Virus record (IMG/VR): IMGVR_UViG_3300038335_000079
Location: 1-7,085 of that record
Direction: 5' to 3' (one strand)
Source of the DNA: a virus
Length of the DNA: 7,085 nucleotides
Of the stretch, positions 344-7,085 are shown one piece after another. The notes under the pieces are model-generated. The model had not been told where the DNA came from. It ran no database searches and saw only the letters and a program-made list of their open reading frames with translations. The translations under genes were made by a program, and so were the position numbers. Every line of letters begins with the position of its first letter. The first letter of the stretch is position 1.

Positions 344-637
344 TTACGCTGCCTTCGGCTGAGCCTGGACACGCTGAGGCAGGATCGAAACAACCCGCGC
401 ACCGACCCGGCGCGTTTCGCGCTCGACCATCAATTCAAGGTTCATCACGTACATCCCCGGCTGAAAGTGCTGCGTGTTTTGCAGGAAGGCTTCGCAGAAC
501 GCACGCTCACCGCTCGGGAGAAGAACCGTCCCTTCAACGATGGTGTAAGTCTTGGTGGTGTCTTTCTTGCCGTTGATGTTGCGATACTTGAACAGATCGA
601 ACGGGAGAGCGATAACGCCGGGTTTTTCGTTTTGCAT
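344..637 (-). CDS. ssDNA-binding protein, gV-like (97 aa)
   Basis: Sits immediately downstream of Rep, as in most inoviruses. RBS TAAGGA lies 6 nt before the ATG. Size is about 90-100 aa. The C-terminal segment QPGMYVMNLELMV...ARVVSILP resembles the Ff gV segment APGLYTVHLSSFKV...DRLRLVP as I recall it. Confidence 0.6.
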   Translation of the reverse strand: MQNEKPGVIALPFDLFKYRNINGKKDTTKTYTIVEGTVLLPSGERAFCEAFLQNTQHFQPGMYVMNLELMVERETRRVGARVVSILPQRVQAQPKAA

Positions 638-653
638 GTCAATTCCTTACGGC

Positions 654-1679
654 TCAGAGAAAGACCGGTTGCGGTGAGCCTGTAGCCGCTGCCGGGAAAA
701 ATTTGTTCCACTGCTTCCATTGGTAGGTTTCAAGGCGATGCGCCTTTTCCAATGCCATGAATTCGTGTGGTTTGGCCTCGCGGCACCAGTCCGGCGCACG
801 CACAGTCGTATAGGTCTCCTCAGATTCCCGTGCAGCGAGGAGCGCCGCGACTTTGCCGACGAGCCGTTTCGGGAGTTCCGGCCTGTAGATGCGCGCGAGC
901 GCACCCCCCAGGTCGCCGCCGTTGAGCGTAAGCAGCATATGCAGACACCGGCCCGCTTGCTTCTGTGCGTGCGCAACCGCTTTTTCGATGGCCGCTGCCG
1001 TCGAATAGGCCACCGTGCGCACGACGCTTTGCACTGGCGAAAGATCAGCGAGGCAGGCATACGCGCCCGCAAGGTATGAACCCGGTTCCCGGAGAATTTC
1101 GACAGGGATTTCCCGATGAACGGCCCGATACTCGACCTCACACCGGAACCACGGAGAATTGGGGTCTTTCTGTTCCTTACCCTTTTCGTAGCCGCGAAAG
1201 AGCTTCCCCGACTCACGCGAGCCAACGTAGAACGTGCAGCCCTTGCCGCTGCCCATATCATCAACGAGTTGCGCTTTCGGCATCGCACCACGGGAAGGCT
1301 TGAAGCCATTTGCTTCGTACTGTGCTTTGCACCAGTCGATTGACCAGTACGCGCCCTCAAAGTCATCCGCTGCAACGTCAGCCCGTGTGATTTTCGCGTG
1401 GCGATCCTCGATAAGCTGCGCGACCGATTCCCAATCTTTGATCTGACGACAACCATCGCCGGTAATCGAAACATGCACCGTATTTTCGTTGCCACCGAAC
1501 GCCGCGAAGCCGCCCGCGAAATCCAGACACACGGCGTAACCGAAACGGCCCCTACCCTTATCCTCGACGGTAACGTCTCCGAACCACTCCGCGAGGAGCC
1601 ATTCGACCCACTTCTGGACGGGTGCGCCCGGTTCGAGCTTGAACGTTACCGACAGGAAGTCGATGAAGGCTGTGTTCAT
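654..1679 (-). CDS. Rolling-circle replication initiation protein (Rep_trans / RstA-like family), 341 aa
   Basis: Motif pattern typical of the family: N-terminal IDFLSVTF, HVSITGDGC, ITRADVAADDF, TFYVGSRESGKLFRGYEKGKEQ and WFRCEVEYR. The start overlaps the upstream ORF stop as ATGA at 1676-1679. Confidence 0.88.
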   Translation of the reverse strand: MNTAFIDFLSVTFKLEPGAPVQKWVEWLLAEWFGDVTVEDKGRGRFGYAVCLDFAGGFAAFGGNENTVHVSITGDGCRQIKDWESVAQLIEDRHAKITRADVAADDFEGAYWSIDWCKAQYEANGFKPSRGAMPKAQLVDDMGSGKGCTFYVGSRESGKLFRGYEKGKEQKDPNSPWFRCEVEYRAVHREIPVEILREPGSYLAGAYACLADLSPVQSVVRTVAYSTAAAIEKAVAHAQKQAGRCLHMLLTLNGGDLGGALARIYRPELPKRLVGKVAALLAARESEETYTTVRAPDWCREAKPHEFMALEKAHRLETYQWKQWNKFFPAAATGSPQPVFL

Positions 1680-2029: not shown

Positions 2030-2096
2030 GTCAGTGCGCGACTGACGGAACGGATTGTCAGTCACGGACTGACAATTTGTCAAGCGGTCGCTGACG
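2029..2096. promoter_or_regulatory. Three operator-like palindromes, TGTCAGT-N5-ACTGACA
   Basis: O1 2029-2047 is TGTCAGT GCGCG ACTGACg. O2 2055-2075 is tTGTCAGT CACGG ACTGACAa, with perfect 8-bp arms. O3 2078-2096 is TGTCAag CGGTC gCTGACg, degenerate. Centres are 27 and 22 bp apart. All lie between divergent genes. Confidence 0.6.
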
Positions 2097-2105
2097 ATTT
2101 ATGTT
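2077..2105 (+). promoter_or_regulatory. Sigma70-like promoter for the repressor gene
   Basis: -35 TTGTCA at 2077-2082, 17-nt spacer, -10 TATGTT at 2100-2105. It lies about 15 nt upstream of RBS GGAGGA (2121-2126) and overlaps O3. Confidence 0.45.
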
Positions 2106-2132: not shown

Positions 2133-2555
2133 GTGAAGCCGATCCGGTTATACATGGACGAGGCCGCAGACCGCGGACTGGTCAAGAACGACAGCGATAT
2201 CGCAGCGAAACTAGCCGTGACGCGCCAGTCCGTCAGTGCGTGGCGAAAGGGCGAGGCGAACCCCGACCCGGATCAAGCCGCAGCACTAGCCGCTCTACTC
2301 GGCAAGCCCGAGGTGATGGCCGAGTGCATGGCCGCACGCGCAAAGCGCCCCGATACCCGCGCAATGTGGGAGAAGGCAGCGCACACATTGAGCATGACAG
2401 TATCATTCGCTGCCGCTGCCGTTGTCAGTTTGTTATTGACACCCTCGCCCGCAGAAGCCGCACAAGGCTTGGGATGTGCCGCCATGCTGATGTGTATTAT
2501 GTTAAGTCCAGCAGGTATTCAGGATTTTCGATTTAATGCATGCCGCATACGCTGA
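2133..2555 (+). CDS. HTH (Xre/Cro-CI-like) transcriptional repressor candidate with a hydrophobic C-terminal tail, 140 aa, GTG start
   Basis: Strong RBS GGAGGA lies 6 nt before the GTG at 2133. HTH-like segment SDIAAKLAVTRQSVSAWRKGEANP. The gene is divergent from the early/replication operon. The C-terminal part is hydrophobic (TLSMTVSFAAAAVVSLLLTP, LGCAAMLMCIML). Confidence 0.8.
   Translation: MKPIRLYMDEAADRGLVKNDSDIAAKLAVTRQSVSAWRKGEANPDPDQAAALAALLGKPEVMAECMAARAKRPDTRAMWEKAAHTLSMTVSFAAAAVVSLLLTPSPAEAAQGLGCAAMLMCIMLSPAGIQDFRFNACRIR
2480..2507. other. dif-like site (candidate XerC/D attP): degenerate left arm, central TGTGTA, right arm TTATGTTAAGT
   Basis: Compared with E. coli dif GGTGCGCATAA-TGTATA-TTATGTTAAAT, the right (XerD) arm at 2497-2507 matches 10/11. 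The central region at 2491-2496 matches 5/6. The left arm at 2480-2490 matches only about 3/11. It forms a sharp AT-rich island inside a GC-rich ORF. Confidence 0.45.
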
Positions 2556-2624
2556 CGGGCTTGCTGGTTGCGTGGTTGAGCTAGAACACGGCAGACCGCA
2601 TGCAGATGGAACGGATCGACACCA

Positions 2625-2646
2625 AGCGCCGAGAGGCGTTTTTTTT
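2625..2646 (+). terminator. Rho-independent terminator candidate downstream of the repressor gene
   Basis: Short stem aGCGCC / GGCGtt with a GAGA tetraloop (2631-2634), followed by a T8 run (2639-2646), 70 nt after the stop. The stem is short, so it is probably weak. Confidence 0.5.
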
Positions 2647-2994
2647 CGTCCGCAATGCGACGGTGCCAGGTGCGTGCAGTCGGATGTGATCCCGGACGGG
2701 ATGCGCGGAGAAACCAATAGAGATGGCGAAGTTCAGAAGACCAATCTGGGAGCATTAGAACAAACAGAAACGGACTGAAAAAAAGCGTCTGATTATATTC
2801 GATGGCGTTGAATATGTCCGTGCATCGAAGATTTGGCATGACAAACGTCCCCGATCACGGCTCCGATAACAAACCGTGCTTCACAGTTAAATAGAGCCGC
2901 AAGCGGCTAGAGGCGCTCGGCGCGCGCCCTTTGTCGATCTGCGCCACTAATCCGCCCTCCCGATCATCTGCCTTCGCCCCCTTCGTTTTGTTGT

Positions 2995-3184: not shown

Positions 3185-3454
3185 ATGATCCCCGCTAAAT
3201 TACGCCGCTCCGCTGAATTTCTTGCACGCCAGCTCACGCTAGCACTAGACGACATGACCGGCAGGCTGGGTGTAAAAATGAAGAAGGCCCCGGCCCCAAT
3301 GAAGGAAGCAGAAGACTTGATTAAACGCGCTCTGCGTCTGATCGACCGTGCAAGCAAAGACGGCGCATACTCAACTGGACTAATGTTGAGAAGCCAGTGC
3401 AAACAATTTTTCGGAACCGCAGAACTATGGAAGATCGGAACGGCACTTTGTTGA
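3185..3454 (+). CDS. Hypothetical 89-aa soluble, probably helical protein (accessory gene A)
   Basis: RBS AAGGAG at 3170-3175 lies 9 nt before the ATG at 3185. The upstream in-frame ATG at 3161 precedes the RBS and is disfavoured. The gene is on the opposite strand to the structural operon. Local GC is lower. No recognisable motifs. Confidence 0.62.
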   Translation: MIPAKLRRSAEFLARQLTLALDDMTGRLGVKMKKAPAPMKEAEDLIKRALRLIDRASKDGAYSTGLMLRSQCKQFFGTAELWKIGTALC

Positions 3455-3740: not shown

Positions 3741-4856
3741 TCAAGAGGCAGGCGGAATACCTGCCCACCCTTTCGGGACGCCCCCCCACGTCGATGCGGT
3801 ACTACCCTGTTGCGCCTGCTGATGTTCGTACCGTGCTGGCGCAGTCTGGACACTACCCTGAACTGGCGAGTGCGACTGAATCGGGCTATTGCCCTTGTTG
3901 CCCGACGTATCCCACGCCACGAAATAGCCCGTTTCCGCGATCTGGCGGCATAGATCCTCCGGCGTCGAAAGTCGCGTGCCCTGCTGGGTATAGCACACAC
4001 ACTTAGACGCACTGGAAACACATGCCGCCGGGAATGGTGCCGTCGTCGGTTCGGTGACAGCATCGAAAACCGGCGCCGTGTGCGGCAGGCCCGCAATACG
4101 CGGCTGTTGCTCTTTCAGCCATTCCGCTGTCGTCTTGTGCTGCTTCCCACCACCCGCCGCTGCACGCTGGAAACCCCCTTTCTGCCCAGGTGCGGCCTGT
4201 TCCGTTGCTGCTGCCGGTGACTCGATATGTCCGGCGTCCTTCCACCACATCACGGCACCCACCACGCACACAATGCCGACGACCGGAAGTGCCCAAAGTA
4301 AATGCACCTTCCACGGCAGTTTGCGCTTATGGGTATGGACAGTTGCCGACTTGTAGGAGCCGATAATCTCCTTCGGATAAACGAAGGTATCCCGGATCGA
4401 GTCCGCCCGACTTTTATCGCACTGCTCTTTCGTCTGCTGCCACTTGTGCGCGGTCGAGACTTCCGACCCGAACATCCGAACCATATGGACGTGTTCGCCC
4501 GCGAGCCGACGAACGTTCGAATCGATCAGCATAGGGTGCTGAGTAACAAAATAAAGGTCGAGACCCTTGTGCCGGTGCGTTTCCATCTCGGCAACGTGGC
4601 GAGGTACAGACGAGCCGTTCCCACGTGGCCGGTAAAGACCCTGAGCCTCATCATGCACCAATATCGATCCATCCGGCAGATCGGGCCATTTAGCCGGATC
4701 ATCAAGCAGTTCCCAACCCGGAAACAGCTCCGGCTTCAAAAGCTCAATCCCGGAATAGAACACGCGCCGATCTTCGTCAATCGCCCGCTGACGGACTTTC
4801 GTAAGCGTGTAAAGCGTTTTGCCAGCCCCCGGAAGGCCAGTGTGAAGGTAGATCAT
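3741..4856 (-). CDS. Zot-like / pI-like phage assembly NTPase, 371 aa
   Basis: N-terminal Walker A GLPGAGKT and Walker B ILVHDEAQ. Central TM helix LLWALPVVGIVCVVGAVMWW, followed by a C-terminal domain. ATGA overlap with the upstream pVI-like gene. Canonical position in the gene order. Confidence 0.93.
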   Translation of the reverse strand: MIYLHTGLPGAGKTLYTLTKVRQRAIDEDRRVFYSGIELLKPELFPGWELLDDPAKWPDLPDGSILVHDEAQGLYRPRGNGSSVPRHVAEMETHRHKGLDLYFVTQHPMLIDSNVRRLAGEHVHMVRMFGSEVSTAHKWQQTKEQCDKSRADSIRDTFVYPKEIIGSYKSATVHTHKRKLPWKVHLLWALPVVGIVCVVGAVMWWKDAGHIESPAAATEQAAPGQKGGFQRAAAGGGKQHKTTAEWLKEQQPRIAGLPHTAPVFDAVTEPTTAPFPAACVSSASKCVCYTQQGTRLSTPEDLCRQIAETGYFVAWDTSGNKGNSPIQSHSPVQGSVQTAPARYEHQQAQQGSTASTWGGVPKGWAGIPPAS

Positions 4857-5200
4857 GACGCCCCCTGCAACCGCCCGAGCATCACGCGGAACCCCTTGAC
4901 GCTGGCAATGGCCAGATGACCGGAGATAGTGATATTGATTGCATCAAACAGCCCGATATACGCAGCCATTCGCATCAACCGACCGGCAATGCCCGTGCCC
5001 GAACCGCCGAGACCACTCAGCAACCCCATAGCCATTTGCATATCCGCGACGAGGAACCCGACCACCGTCTGAAATCCCTTAATGCTGATGAACGCAAGCC
5101 CCGCAGCCGCGAGCATCGACCCGGCTCGACTGGCAAGCGCCGCAGTGATGCCCGAAATAATCGACCCGATCAGAGTCGCACCGATAAGTGGAAGCGCCAT
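4853..5200 (-). CDS. pVI-like minor coat / membrane protein, 115 aa
   Basis: Highly hydrophobic and Gly/Ala-rich with several predicted TM segments. Size and position (between the pIII-like and pI-like genes) match gVI-type proteins. RBS AAGGGG lies 5 nt upstream and overlaps the preceding stop. Confidence 0.7.
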   Translation of the reverse strand: MALPLIGATLIGSIISGITAALASRAGSMLAAAGLAFISIKGFQTVVGFLVADMQMAMGLLSGLGGSGTGIAGRLMRMAAYIGLFDAINITISGHLAIASVKGFRVMLGRLQGAS

Positions 5201-5209
5201 ATCTGCCCC

Positions 5210-6718
5210 TTAGAGCTTGAGAGAGAAGGCCCGGATCAGACCCAGGTACGCAAGGATGTGCATCATTACGCGAATGAACGTACCCACGTCGCACAGAATC
5301 CCGGTATCGAAATTGAGCGTAGCACCCATAACCTCGATCGGCTCGACATGGATGCACTCCGACGTGTACGTGATATAGGACTGCTGAGACTGCTGATAGA
5401 CCTCACTGATGTCCCAATCGAAAGAGCCATCTTTATTGAGCGCCGCCGCAGCGTCCGCTTCGCTAATTGACGAAACAGCATCCACCCCGGCTTGCCCGAG
5501 CGTCGCCAAGTCGTTCGCCTCCCGCATCCACGCCGTCGCGCAGGTCTCCTCCCAAGACGCCCGCGCAATCGCACAATCGACAGCATCCCCGGTACACGTA
5601 AAGCCCGCCGAACACGTACCCGACCACGCCGATTTGTCGCCCTCAGTCCCGACACAAACGGCCGATTTCGGATTTTGTTCGCAGAATGTCGGCTGCGCCT
5701 GCTCTTTCTTTTCGGTCGTTGTTTCCGTGCCGGTCGTATTGCCGCTCGCGTCCTTCGTTTCCGTCGTCTTAGTCGTTGTCGTACTGCAAAGGCTGCCCGT
5801 ACAAGAAGTGGTTTCTTCCGTGGTGGTTGTCGTGCTAGAACCATCCGGGTTAGTCGTCGTTGAAGTAGTCGGAGCCTTCGTTTCCGATCCCGCCTTCGTG
5901 CCACCGTCGATCCCCGACGTACCGGCCCCCGCACCGACGCACGTATAAACCCCATTCACTTCGCCATAGGCCCCGCCGTTCGCGGAACAGTCCTGCGCGT
6001 CCTCGCCGCTGTCGTACCAAGGCTTCGTTTCGTTCTCCGTACCGAAATCCGTTACTTCCGACAACTGCCCGCCATAGCTGTCGCACGTACGACCGTTGAA
6101 CTGAAACGGCCCCGTCCCCATGCAATAAGCACCAAGGGAAATCATGTCGCCATTCGCGTCGTTATTCCATTGGCACGCCACCCCACCCTGCGCAACCGCC
6201 GCGCACCCCTCAACACAAAACGATTGCGACCCGTTGTAACTGCGCGGGTCTTCCACACCAAGAACCGCGTAGGAGTTCGACCGGCCCGCGATCCGACCCG
6301 CCATGTTGGTGCAATCCTTAGCGCATAGCCCGTCCGCCCCCCTAGTCTCGCCTGCATCGCAGGCCGGTGCATTTACGCACGTAGTTCCCGAGATAGTTCC
6401 GCCATAGGGACACTCATATGCCGTTGTAACAGAGCCGCCCCCTACGCCAGCGTTATACCAACCGCCAGACGCATTATCTTGCCAGAGGCACGACGTACCC
6501 GTTCCCGGATATTTCGCATCGCCATATGTCCCCGGATACGATGACGACATTTCGAGCGCGACCCGACATGCCAAATCAGCCGTAGTGACGTGTGTGGTTG
6601 GCGACTTCGTGTTGTACCAGTAGGAGCTCGCCGGGTAATCGTCCGCAAACGCCAGCCCCGCTGCAAACGTGAGAACGAACCCCGCGAGGAAGAAAATCAG
6701 TCGTTTAGCATTAGCCAT
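5210..6718 (-). CDS. pIII-like adsorption / minor coat protein, 502 aa from the ATG at 6718 (ORF track extends to a TTG at 6748)
   Basis: From the ATG at 6718 the N-terminus MANAKRLIFFLAGFVLTFAAGLAFA-DD is a canonical signal peptide. A Cys-rich N-terminal domain follows. A Thr/Ser-rich linker is encoded at about 5705-5899. The C-terminal hydrophobic anchor is GILCDVGTFIRVMMHILAYLGLIRAF. Position is after the coat gene. Confidence 0.75.
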   Translation of the reverse strand: MANAKRLIFFLAGFVLTFAAGLAFADDYPASSYWYNTKSPTTHVTTADLACRVALEMSSSYPGTYGDAKYPGTGTSCLWQDNASGGWYNAGVGGGSVTTAYECPYGGTISGTTCVNAPACDAGETRGADGLCAKDCTNMAGRIAGRSNSYAVLGVEDPRSYNGSQSFCVEGCAAVAQGGVACQWNNDANGDMISLGAYCMGTGPFQFNGRTCDSYGGQLSEVTDFGTENETKPWYDSGEDAQDCSANGGAYGEVNGVYTCVGAGAGTSGIDGGTKAGSETKAPTTSTTTNPDGSSTTTTTEETTSCTGSLCSTTTTKTTETKDASGNTTGTETTTEKKEQAQPTFCEQNPKSAVCVGTEGDKSAWSGTCSAGFTCTGDAVDCAIARASWEETCATAWMREANDLATLGQAGVDAVSSISEADAAAALNKDGSFDWDISEVYQQSQQSYITYTSECIHVEPIEVMGATLNFDTGILCDVGTFIRVMMHILAYLGLIRAFSLKL

Positions 6719-6766
6719 GCCGCCCCCAACACCGCAACCATTAGCCAAAGTCCCATGGCGACCCCC

Positions 6767-6855: not shown

Positions 6856-7056
6856 TTAACCGGCCTTCCGCACCCACTTGAACACCTTCGCACCATAGTG
6901 GATGGTGAGGACAGCACCGCCGATCAGAGCAATCGGCGTCGCGGCTGCGAGGATATCAGTCACGATATCGGTAACATCCACGGCAGCCGATGCGAGGCCA
7001 GCAGCGAGCGACAGACCGCCAGCGACGGCGGATTGGTACAGGGTCTTAACTTTCAT
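6856..7056 (-). CDS. Major coat protein (pVIII-like), 66-aa precursor
   Basis: Signal peptide MKVKTLYQSAVAGGLSLAAGLASA. The mature ~42-aa chain has an acidic N-terminus (AVDVTDIVTD), a hydrophobic core (ILAAATPIALIGGAVLTI) and a basic C-terminus (KVFKWVRKAG). RBS AAGGAG lies 8 nt upstream. Confidence 0.9.
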   Translation of the reverse strand: MKVKTLYQSAVAGGLSLAAGLASAAVDVTDIVTDILAAATPIALIGGAVLTIHYGAKVFKWVRKAG

Positions 7057-7085
7057 TTCTACGACTCCTTTTCATCAGGAAGATT
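6959..7085. repeat. Terminal direct repeat, copy 2 (identical to 1-127)
   Basis: See copy 1. It also contains the last codons and stop of the 79-aa ORF (7059-7085) and the first 98 nt of the coat gene. Confidence 0.95.

Follow-up and report, generated by a model that had tools for sequence, protein, structure and literature searches.

A dif-like site in the last codons of a filamentous phage repressor gene, a probable one-armed attP for the host Xer system

The filamentous phage phiRSS0 of Ralstonia solanacearum carries a dif-type attP at the 3' end of its ORF13 repressor gene (PMC3816273; PMC4471427), and integration at the host dif shortens ORF13 from 156 to 130 aa (PMC3816273). One-armed dif-like attP sites have also been described (PMC12715192), as has the TLCphi type of IMEX, with a degenerate XerD arm and an XerD-first exchange activated by XafT (PMC6744903). 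We analysed a stretch of viral DNA of 7,085 nt (IMG/VR record IMGVR_UViG_3300038335_000079, hereafter the window) in which two parts of the phiRSS0-/Cf-type module are present, namely a homologous repressor and a candidate attP at the homologous position. Positions 2480-2507 are very probably the one-armed attP of an integrative filamentous phage that uses the host Xer system (IMEX), placed in the last codons of the repressor gene. This interpretation is supported because the junctions of related prophages fall at exactly this site, beside host-type dif arms; all junction evidence comes from these relatives, whose repressors are 65-74% identical to that of the window, and not from this phage itself.

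A circular inovirus genome and its single dif-like site

The window has a 127-nt terminal direct repeat (positions 1-127 and 6959-7085), which shows it to be a circularly closed contig, corresponding to an inovirus genome of about 6958 bp with a GC content of 57.5%. Scans of its open reading frames with Pfam and PHROG profiles recognised only Rep_trans, Zot, coat, DUF2523, SSB-like and HTH_3 proteins (Table 1), all other ORFs being of at most 97 aa. No recombinase, integrase or transposase was found among the window ORFs by these scans, in agreement with the initial annotation, which had reported that an integrase gene was missing. The window contains no tRNA gene, and integration targeted to a tRNA gene was excluded.

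The whole genome gave no megablast match against 50,697 deposited phage records, and its Rep shares no more than 39% identity with that of any deposited inovirus (Stenotrophomonas, Ralstonia, Xanthomonas and Vibrio), so that on genome-level similarity we did not place the phage in Restivirus (RSS1-like). The exact 31-nt junction sequence had no match in IMG/VR or in JGI metagenome contigs, and the window's own repressor protein (P0001) was not on record in the protein look-up. Thus, megablast, the P0001 look-up and the junction-sequence searches revealed this exact phage neither in integrated form nor in any second copy. The phage sequence usable to recognise prophage junctions of the window phage is GATGTGTATTATGTAAACT. 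Judging from its relatives, the host would be a Thauera- or Azoarcus-like bacterium.

Table 1. Features of the window (positions in nt; position 1 is the first letter of the window)
Feature	Position	Strand	Basis or remark
SSB-like protein	344-637	-	Pfam/PHROG scans of ORFs
Rep_trans replication protein	654-1679	-	Pfam/PHROG scans of ORFs
Promoter-like site upstream of the repressor, divergent control region	2077-2105	+	Consensus scan only
Repressor, 140 aa: N-terminal XRE-family HTH, DUF3693-like part, hydrophobic segment	2133-2555	+	Pfam, PHROG and homologues
Left (XerC-side) arm of the putative attP, CGCCATGCTGA	2480-2490	+	Degenerate; repressor codons 116-120
Central (overlap) region TGTGTA, inferred crossover region	2491-2496	+	Identical to both junctions of the L016 prophage
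Predicted XerD-binding arm, TTATGTTAAGT	2497-2507	+	10/11 to the E. coli XerD arm
Repressor tail, codons 124-140 (LSPAGIQDFRFNACRIR) and stop	2502-2555	+	Episomal form only; loss on integration predicted
78-aa gene of no assigned function, convergent with the repressor	2519-2755	-	tblastn conservation, codon statistics
Terminator-like hairpin and T-run downstream of the repressor	2624-2651	+	Equivalents visible in L002, L003, L016 and RSS-TH1
Promoter-like site upstream of the 78-aa gene	2792-2820	-	Consensus scan only, 10/12 hexamer positions
Zot/pI	3741-4856	-	Pfam/PHROG scans
DUF2523 protein	4853-5200	-	Pfam/PHROG scans
Large pIII-like ORF	5210-6748	-	ORF scans
B-type major coat protein	6856-7056	-	Pfam/PHROG scans of ORFs

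The site at 2480-2507 reads CGCCATGCTGA-TGTGTA-TTATGTTAAGT. Its last 17 positions (2491-2507) equal the central region and XerD arm of E. coli dif at 15 positions, a resemblance already pointed out in the initial annotation. To assess it, both strands of the window were searched with the query TGTATATTATGTTAAAT, allowing at most 3 mismatches; this yielded a single match, 2491-2507 itself with 2 mismatches, hence no second dif-like site on either strand at this threshold, and none of 200 dinucleotide-preserving shuffles had any match. The same 17 positions agree at 15 with the host dif reconstructed from the nearest related prophage (see below), including all 6 of the central region. As 13 of the 17 bases are A or T, the earlier description of an AT-rich island in GC-rich sequence holds.

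The left arm was compared by manual count: 3 of 11 positions match the E. coli XerC arm (GGTGCGCATAA), as had been estimated, and 5 of 11 match the reconstructed host XerC arm (AACCACCATAA). No better XerC arm with centre occurs elsewhere in the window, and no inverted repeat partner suited to the site was found around 2480-2507. The XerC-side arms of relatives at the equivalent position have no consensus. We could not follow the initial annotation in calling such an arm atypical, since it is degenerate in every member of the group as well as in RSS-TH1 and Cf2; a degenerate XerC side is typical of the family and not an anomaly. A shifted XerC arm, CCGCCAT (2479-2485, similar to the host CCACCAT), was rejected, since the spacer would have to be 9 bp long and relatives have no conserved counterpart.

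If translation starts at the GTG at 2133, as is supported by homologues starting with MKPIRLY, the site corresponds to repressor codons 120-125 (ATG TGT ATT ATG TTA AGT), encoding MCIMLS as proposed. That these codons are unusual is correct in part: in the phage genes TTA and AGT are rare (3% of Leu and 9% of Ser codons), but TGT (34%) and ATT (33%) are no more than minor codons. The joint probability of TGT, ATT, TTA and AGT, conditional on the encoded amino acids, is about 3e-4.

Repressor tails and prophage junctions in relatives

The repressor matched the Pfam families HTH_3 (E 2.6e-6) and DUF3693 (E 6e-4) and PHROG 638 (transcriptional regulator, E 4e-21). We retrieved 50 homologues, those with a named source being from Thauera, and a genome scan with the repressor alignment added Thauera aromatica and Azoarcus MAGs; the alignment scans yielded no more than 6 loci in genome contigs and 4 in metagenome contigs, most of which were divergent copies in Azoarcus MAGs that matched over residues 1-87 only and had no recognisable site. 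The homologues resemble one another as far as a C(I/V)M tripeptide (residues 121-123), where 9 of the 31 aligned homologues stop (123 aa), the remaining ones continuing into unrelated tails of 7 to about 60 residues. Because the tails are unrelated in sequence and so variable in length, a conserved function of the tail is argued against, and we saw no evidence for one; the tail of the window repressor also overlaps the 3' end of the 78-aa gene on the opposite strand. The site itself is read as C-I-M in the window group, as L-Y-Y-V-N in P0003 and P0014, as F-I-L-C-K in RSS-TH1 and as L-Y-I-M-S in Cf2. Since homologues read it in three different frames (CIM, LYYVN and FILCK), the conserved object is the DNA and not the peptide, in line with the initial suggestion that the sequence is constrained as a site and not by coding.

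Upstream of these codons, a hydrophobic segment that resembles a transmembrane helix (LSMTVSFAAAAVVSLLLTPSP) occupies repressor residues ~86-108 (2388-2456) and separates the HTH/DUF3693 part from the att codons. The hydrophobic stretch is kept across the family including RSS-TH1 and Cf2, and is unusual for a DNA-binding repressor. In the control region at 2030-2100, two palindromic repeats of the form GTCAGT-N5-ACTGAC (TCAGTgcgcgACTGA and GTCAGTcacggACTGAC) are flanked by the promoter-like sites of the divergent repressor and Rep operon, and are likely repressor operators.

Three complete prophages (L016, L024 and L003), each flanked on both sides by a dif-like site, were found inserted between host genes, and both junctions of all three fall exactly at the window-equivalent site. 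The nearest relative, L016 (repressor 74% identical), lies between a GGDEF/EAL gene and radA; its attL is AACCACCATAA-TGTGTA-TTATGTCAACT and its attR is TGCCAAGGCAG-TGTGTA-TTATGTAAACT. In L024 (between host genes), attL is TACTGCCATAA-TTTGTA-TTATGTAAAGT and attR is CGGTGCTGCAG-TTTGTA-TTATGTAAACT. In L003 (Thauera aromatica), attL ends in TGTGCA-TTATGTTAAGT and attR is CGTTGCTACGA-TGTGCA-TTATGTAAACT. At the right junction of L017, hox genes come next, followed by the radA-LysR-MFS-UDG neighbourhood found in L016. No tRNA gene lies at the integration point of L016, L024 or L003. The prophage junctions that the initial annotation had proposed as a check are thus, in relatives, exactly where it had placed them. 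Consistently, identity to the window at the attR junctions is about 0.72 upstream of the site and about 0.52, the background value, downstream.

In the relatives, from Thauera and related hosts, the XerD arm on the host side of the junction is always TTATGTAAACT, namely at L003 10365-10375, L016 10365-10375, L017 708-718, L024 7150-7160, L001 5249-5259 and L005 3395-3405 (- strand). This arm differs from the canonical XerD arm TTATGTTAAAT and contains the TAA that serves as the stop codon of the prophage repressor. The phage-side arms vary (TTATGTTAAGT, TTATGTCAACT, TTATGTAAAGT) and mostly avoid this TAA (TTATGTTAAGT and TTATGTCAACT). The arm of the window, which matches the host-side arm at 9 of 11 positions, is found unchanged on the phage side of attL in L003 and in the attP of the circular contigs L020 and L025, in which the attP is undivided and the ORF reads through. 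Within one prophage, attL and attR share the same central region, which differs among hosts (TGTGTA, TTTGTA, TGTGCA, TCTGCG). The host dif sequences were reconstructed from attL plus attR, no empty dif of any host having been seen; that from L016 is AACCACCATAA-TGTGTA-TTATGTAAACT, with the central region of the window.

An opposite-polarity relative in Thauera sp. 63 (L005; L002 is the same prophage), with site copies at 3395-3425 and 10355-10385, independently gave the host dif AAACACCATAA-TTTGTG-TTATGTAAACT. The reconstructions from L016 and L005 support each other because the host XerC arm comes from attL in one and from attR in the other. In the opposite-polarity members, L005 and prophage 1 of L003 (1-3837), the good arm is that of XerC (AAGCACGATAA-TTTGTG) and a degenerate XerD arm lies in the 3' codons of the repressor, as in TLCphi. 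Thauera aromatica (L003) carries one phage of each polarity, adjacent at dif, and the two prophages are oppositely oriented because their att polarities are opposite. In the same genome, the ~20 nt past the host XerD arm (acatgtttcgatggctgattcgcc) resemble the phage sequence past the phage XerD arm (cttcgacggctgattc), on comparing L003 10376-10400 with L004 2654-2675 and L003 3836-3860; the likeness may be left over from an element that occupied dif earlier, or may reflect extended att homology.

The repressors of relatives in prophage context end with C(I/V)M and a stop at aa 123 (P0002, P0005 and P0009), and those of circular contigs (P0016 and P0017) continue for 19-26 unrelated residues to a total of 142-149 aa. 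In L024 the site is in another frame and the repressor (P0003) acquires a host-derived tail, for a length of 177 aa. The expectation that integrated and episomal forms encode different repressor C-termini is thus borne out in relatives (123 or 177 aa against 142-149 aa). The initial annotation had further supposed that integration replaces the last ~20 residues; such a replacement is seen in P0003, but for the window we predict a truncation by 17 residues. A length of 123 aa does not strictly prove a host junction, as in the contig L004 the 123-aa repressor runs directly into phage DNA, where the 78-aa gene starts, and not into host genes. Read at the level of sequence, these comparisons show junction geometry, arm polymorphisms and repressor truncation in the relatives.

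Predicted integration and the neighbouring 78-aa gene

By analogy with the relatives, we propose that in the double-stranded replicative form the host XerD would bind 2497-2507, and that XerC, whose binding here is an assumption, would be recruited to the degenerate left arm through cooperativity. The attP would then pair with a chromosomal dif that shares the centre TGTGTA, with strand exchange at the borders of this centre, in an order that we can only infer. At attL the predicted product is host XerC arm, centre and phage XerD arm, in other words a dif with both arms complete, beyond which lies the 78-aa gene; with such a dif, chromosome dimers should still be resolved. At attR it would be the degenerate arm of the repressor, the centre and the host XerD arm. 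As the host arm is TTATGTAAACT at every junction of the relatives and would continue the repressor frame as ATG-TAA, truncation is predicted for the window as well: the host arm would place the stop directly after Met123, giving a prophage repressor of 123 aa instead of 140. Integration would also separate the repressor from its own terminator.

This proposal is consistent with the features of an IMEX found here: a dif-like attP with one recognisable Xer arm and centre (15/17, unique, 0/200 shuffles), no self-encoded integrase, recombinase or transposase and, in relatives only, copies that are inserted at the host dif and flanked by two dif-like sites, of which one regenerates a full dif (L016, L024, L003 and L005). 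The initial claim that the phage integrates at the host dif through this site agrees with the junctions of L016, L024 and L003, dependence on Xer being suggested by the sequence together with precedent.

Xer sites on plasmids serve dimer resolution, and the site could in principle be mainly a multimer-resolution site of the replicative form, similar to cer or psi of plasmids, in a phage that is episomal only. The window is the circular, undivided form, and no integrated copy of this phage was found in IMG/VR or JGI metagenome contigs, as this reading would have it. However, relatives are integrated at the same site in at least three independent chromosomal contexts, and cer and psi depend on two functional arms and on ~150-200 bp of accessory DNA, whereas the left arm in the window is degenerate coding sequence. 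We therefore consider an exclusively episomal role improbable, while resolution of multimers and integration are compatible with each other.

We regard as very improbable that the dif resemblance is fortuitous or a relic, the AT-rich codons encoding a needed CIM peptide and recombination, if any, occurring elsewhere or through another enzyme. C(I/V)M does recur across the repressor family and the XerC side is unlike dif, but no shuffle reproduced the match, homologues use other frames for the same DNA (LYYVN, FILCK, LYIMS), no recombinase gene is available, the homology of the prophages to the window breaks at the site (about 0.72 to about 0.52), and the junction data already contradict this explanation. 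An attP like that of CTXphi, the best-known Xer-dependent inovirus, in which single-stranded DNA folds into a hairpin pairing two inverted dif-like sites, has next to no probability here, given one dif-like site only (both strands, at most 3 mismatches), no suitable inverted repeat partner, and attL and attR sequences in relatives that are simple reciprocal products of a double-stranded site.

Under the preferred reading, the site is a double-stranded one-armed attP, with the 78-aa gene at the other prophage end. The stop codon of the 78-aa gene lies 12 nt past the XerD arm, the gene overlapping the repressor tail on the other strand. In all relatives it is located immediately past the good arm; by tblastn, it adjoins the att site in L002/L005, L003 (twice), L004, L016 and L020, and more weakly in RSS-TH1, where it is unannotated; copies were located at L002 35-259, L003 3548-3775 and 3867-4094, L016 2399-2593, L020 3799-4008 and L021 554-745. 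Third codon positions differ about twice as often as first and second positions, and the gene thus evolves as coding sequence. Its protein follows the pattern MLPxWSxELRxLYWFLR...RRIxxEKKRL...GVD...LHAVC and belongs to PHROG 27692 (E 1.6e-7), with 170 cluster representatives in a large protein library (E-value of at most 0.001). Pfam gave no match at an E-value of up to 1 for the window protein, and none at up to 0.01 for 110 relatives. An AlphaFold2 model has four helices (pLDDT 92.9), and Foldseek of this model against the PDB returned nothing at an E-value of up to 0.001. The repressor terminator lies within the 78-aa coding sequence on the opposite strand, its A-run encoding the conserved EKKRL; the same arrangement is present in L002, L003, L016 and RSS-TH1.

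The position of the 78-aa gene mirrors that of XafT/P15 in other Xer-dependent elements. We tried to identify the protein as XafT-like and rejected this, as hhalign comparisons with Cf2_9 and PM2 gp a (both DUF3653) gave probabilities below 1%. By analogy of position, a role of the protein in recombination is possible. A bolder version, which we consider rather unlikely, is that this four-helix protein is a new Xer accessory factor, an analogue of XafT unrelated to DUF3653 that would enable XerCD to act on a one-armed attP. If true, it would account for the presence of the gene next to XerD-armed as well as XerC-armed sites, and for its occurrence in RSS-type phages. In a weaker variant, the 140-aa episomal and 123-aa prophage repressors may be functionally distinct isoforms switched by integration, which presumes that the two proteins differ in function.

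Comparison with known Xer-dependent phages

phiRs551 was rejected as a precedent, being an RSM-type phage with its own serine recombinase (PMC5608472). With its single site, the window is not of the CTXphi type (two inverted dif-like sites, single-stranded DNA hairpin). Neither is it of the VGJphi type, which has canonical XerC and XerD arms and centre homology on the XerC side only, whereas the XerC arm of the window matches at 3/11 to 5/11 positions and its centre is identical to the host dif of a relative. It resembles TLCphi in having a double-stranded attP with one degenerate arm, a centre fully matching a host dif and a small adjacent gene, but differs in that the degenerate arm is that of XerC, the XerD arm is intact and no XafT/DUF3653 is encoded, so that we did not assign it to this type. 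TLC-like polarity, a good XerC and a degenerate XerD arm, is found in the mirror-image relatives (L005 and prophage 1 of L003).

Among the closest known systems are also phages with a one-armed attP and an XafT/P15 (DUF3653) partner. In these a 17-bp arm plus centre suffices as attP, the attP is flanked by the repressor and a small regulator gene that form the two prophage ends, as here, and one junction regenerates a full dif, as in the relatives of the window. Their attP is located between the two genes, whereas that of the window is inside repressor codons, with no DUF3653 detectable.

In the Cf-type phages of Xanthomonas (Cf2 and Cf1c), the annotated attP is within the gene of an XRE-family regulator. 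In the GenBank record of Cf2, an attP is annotated at 5499-5512 inside the XRE gene Cf2_10, the product of which is homologous to the window repressor (hhalign probability 96.5%, E 8.5e-10), its site codons LYIMS aligning with the C(I/V)M of the family and being followed by about 30 codons. The Cf2 site, TGCGTATAGTC-TGTATA-TTATGTCAAAG, has a good XerD arm and a degenerate left arm as in the window. Its downstream gene is a DUF3653 member (PSB15/XafT family), unrelated to the 78-aa gene (hhalign probability <1%).

The RSS-type phages belong to the closest known systems as well. ORF13 of RSS-TH1 is homologous to the window repressor family (hhalign probability 98.7%, E 3e-16), with an alignment covering family residues 3-123, up to the site-bearing codons, and in both phages the site lies at the same place, about 14 residues past a PSPAEAA motif. 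The RSS-TH1 site, CAGGTCAACGA-TTTATC-TTATGTAAAAT, consists like that of the window of a degenerate left arm, a centre and an XerD arm, and phiRSS0 and RSS-TH1 likewise have no integrase and the same small convergent gene downstream. They differ from the window in that the repressor is only ~33% identical (tblastn, E 2e-3), the site is in a different frame and the hosts of the window's relatives are Rhodocyclales (Thauera, Azoarcus), not Ralstonia. Unlike in phiRSS0, the stop codon of the prophage repressor would come from the host XerD arm itself.

Placing the attP in the repressor gene is therefore not a new design, having been published for phiRSS0 and annotated in GenBank for Cf2, and the attP of the window reveals no new mechanism beyond what is known from Ralstonia and Xanthomonas phages. 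It broadens the range of the phiRSS0/Cf-type lysogeny design to include filamentous phages of Betaproteobacteria similar to Thauera and Azoarcus, provides a reconstructed dif for Thauera-like hosts and gives the exact prophage borders of such elements, one being the repressor end C(I/V)M-TAA and the other the 78-aa gene. Taken together, the comparison shows this design to be ancestral to a single repressor family that spans phages of Xanthomonas, Ralstonia and Rhodocyclales.
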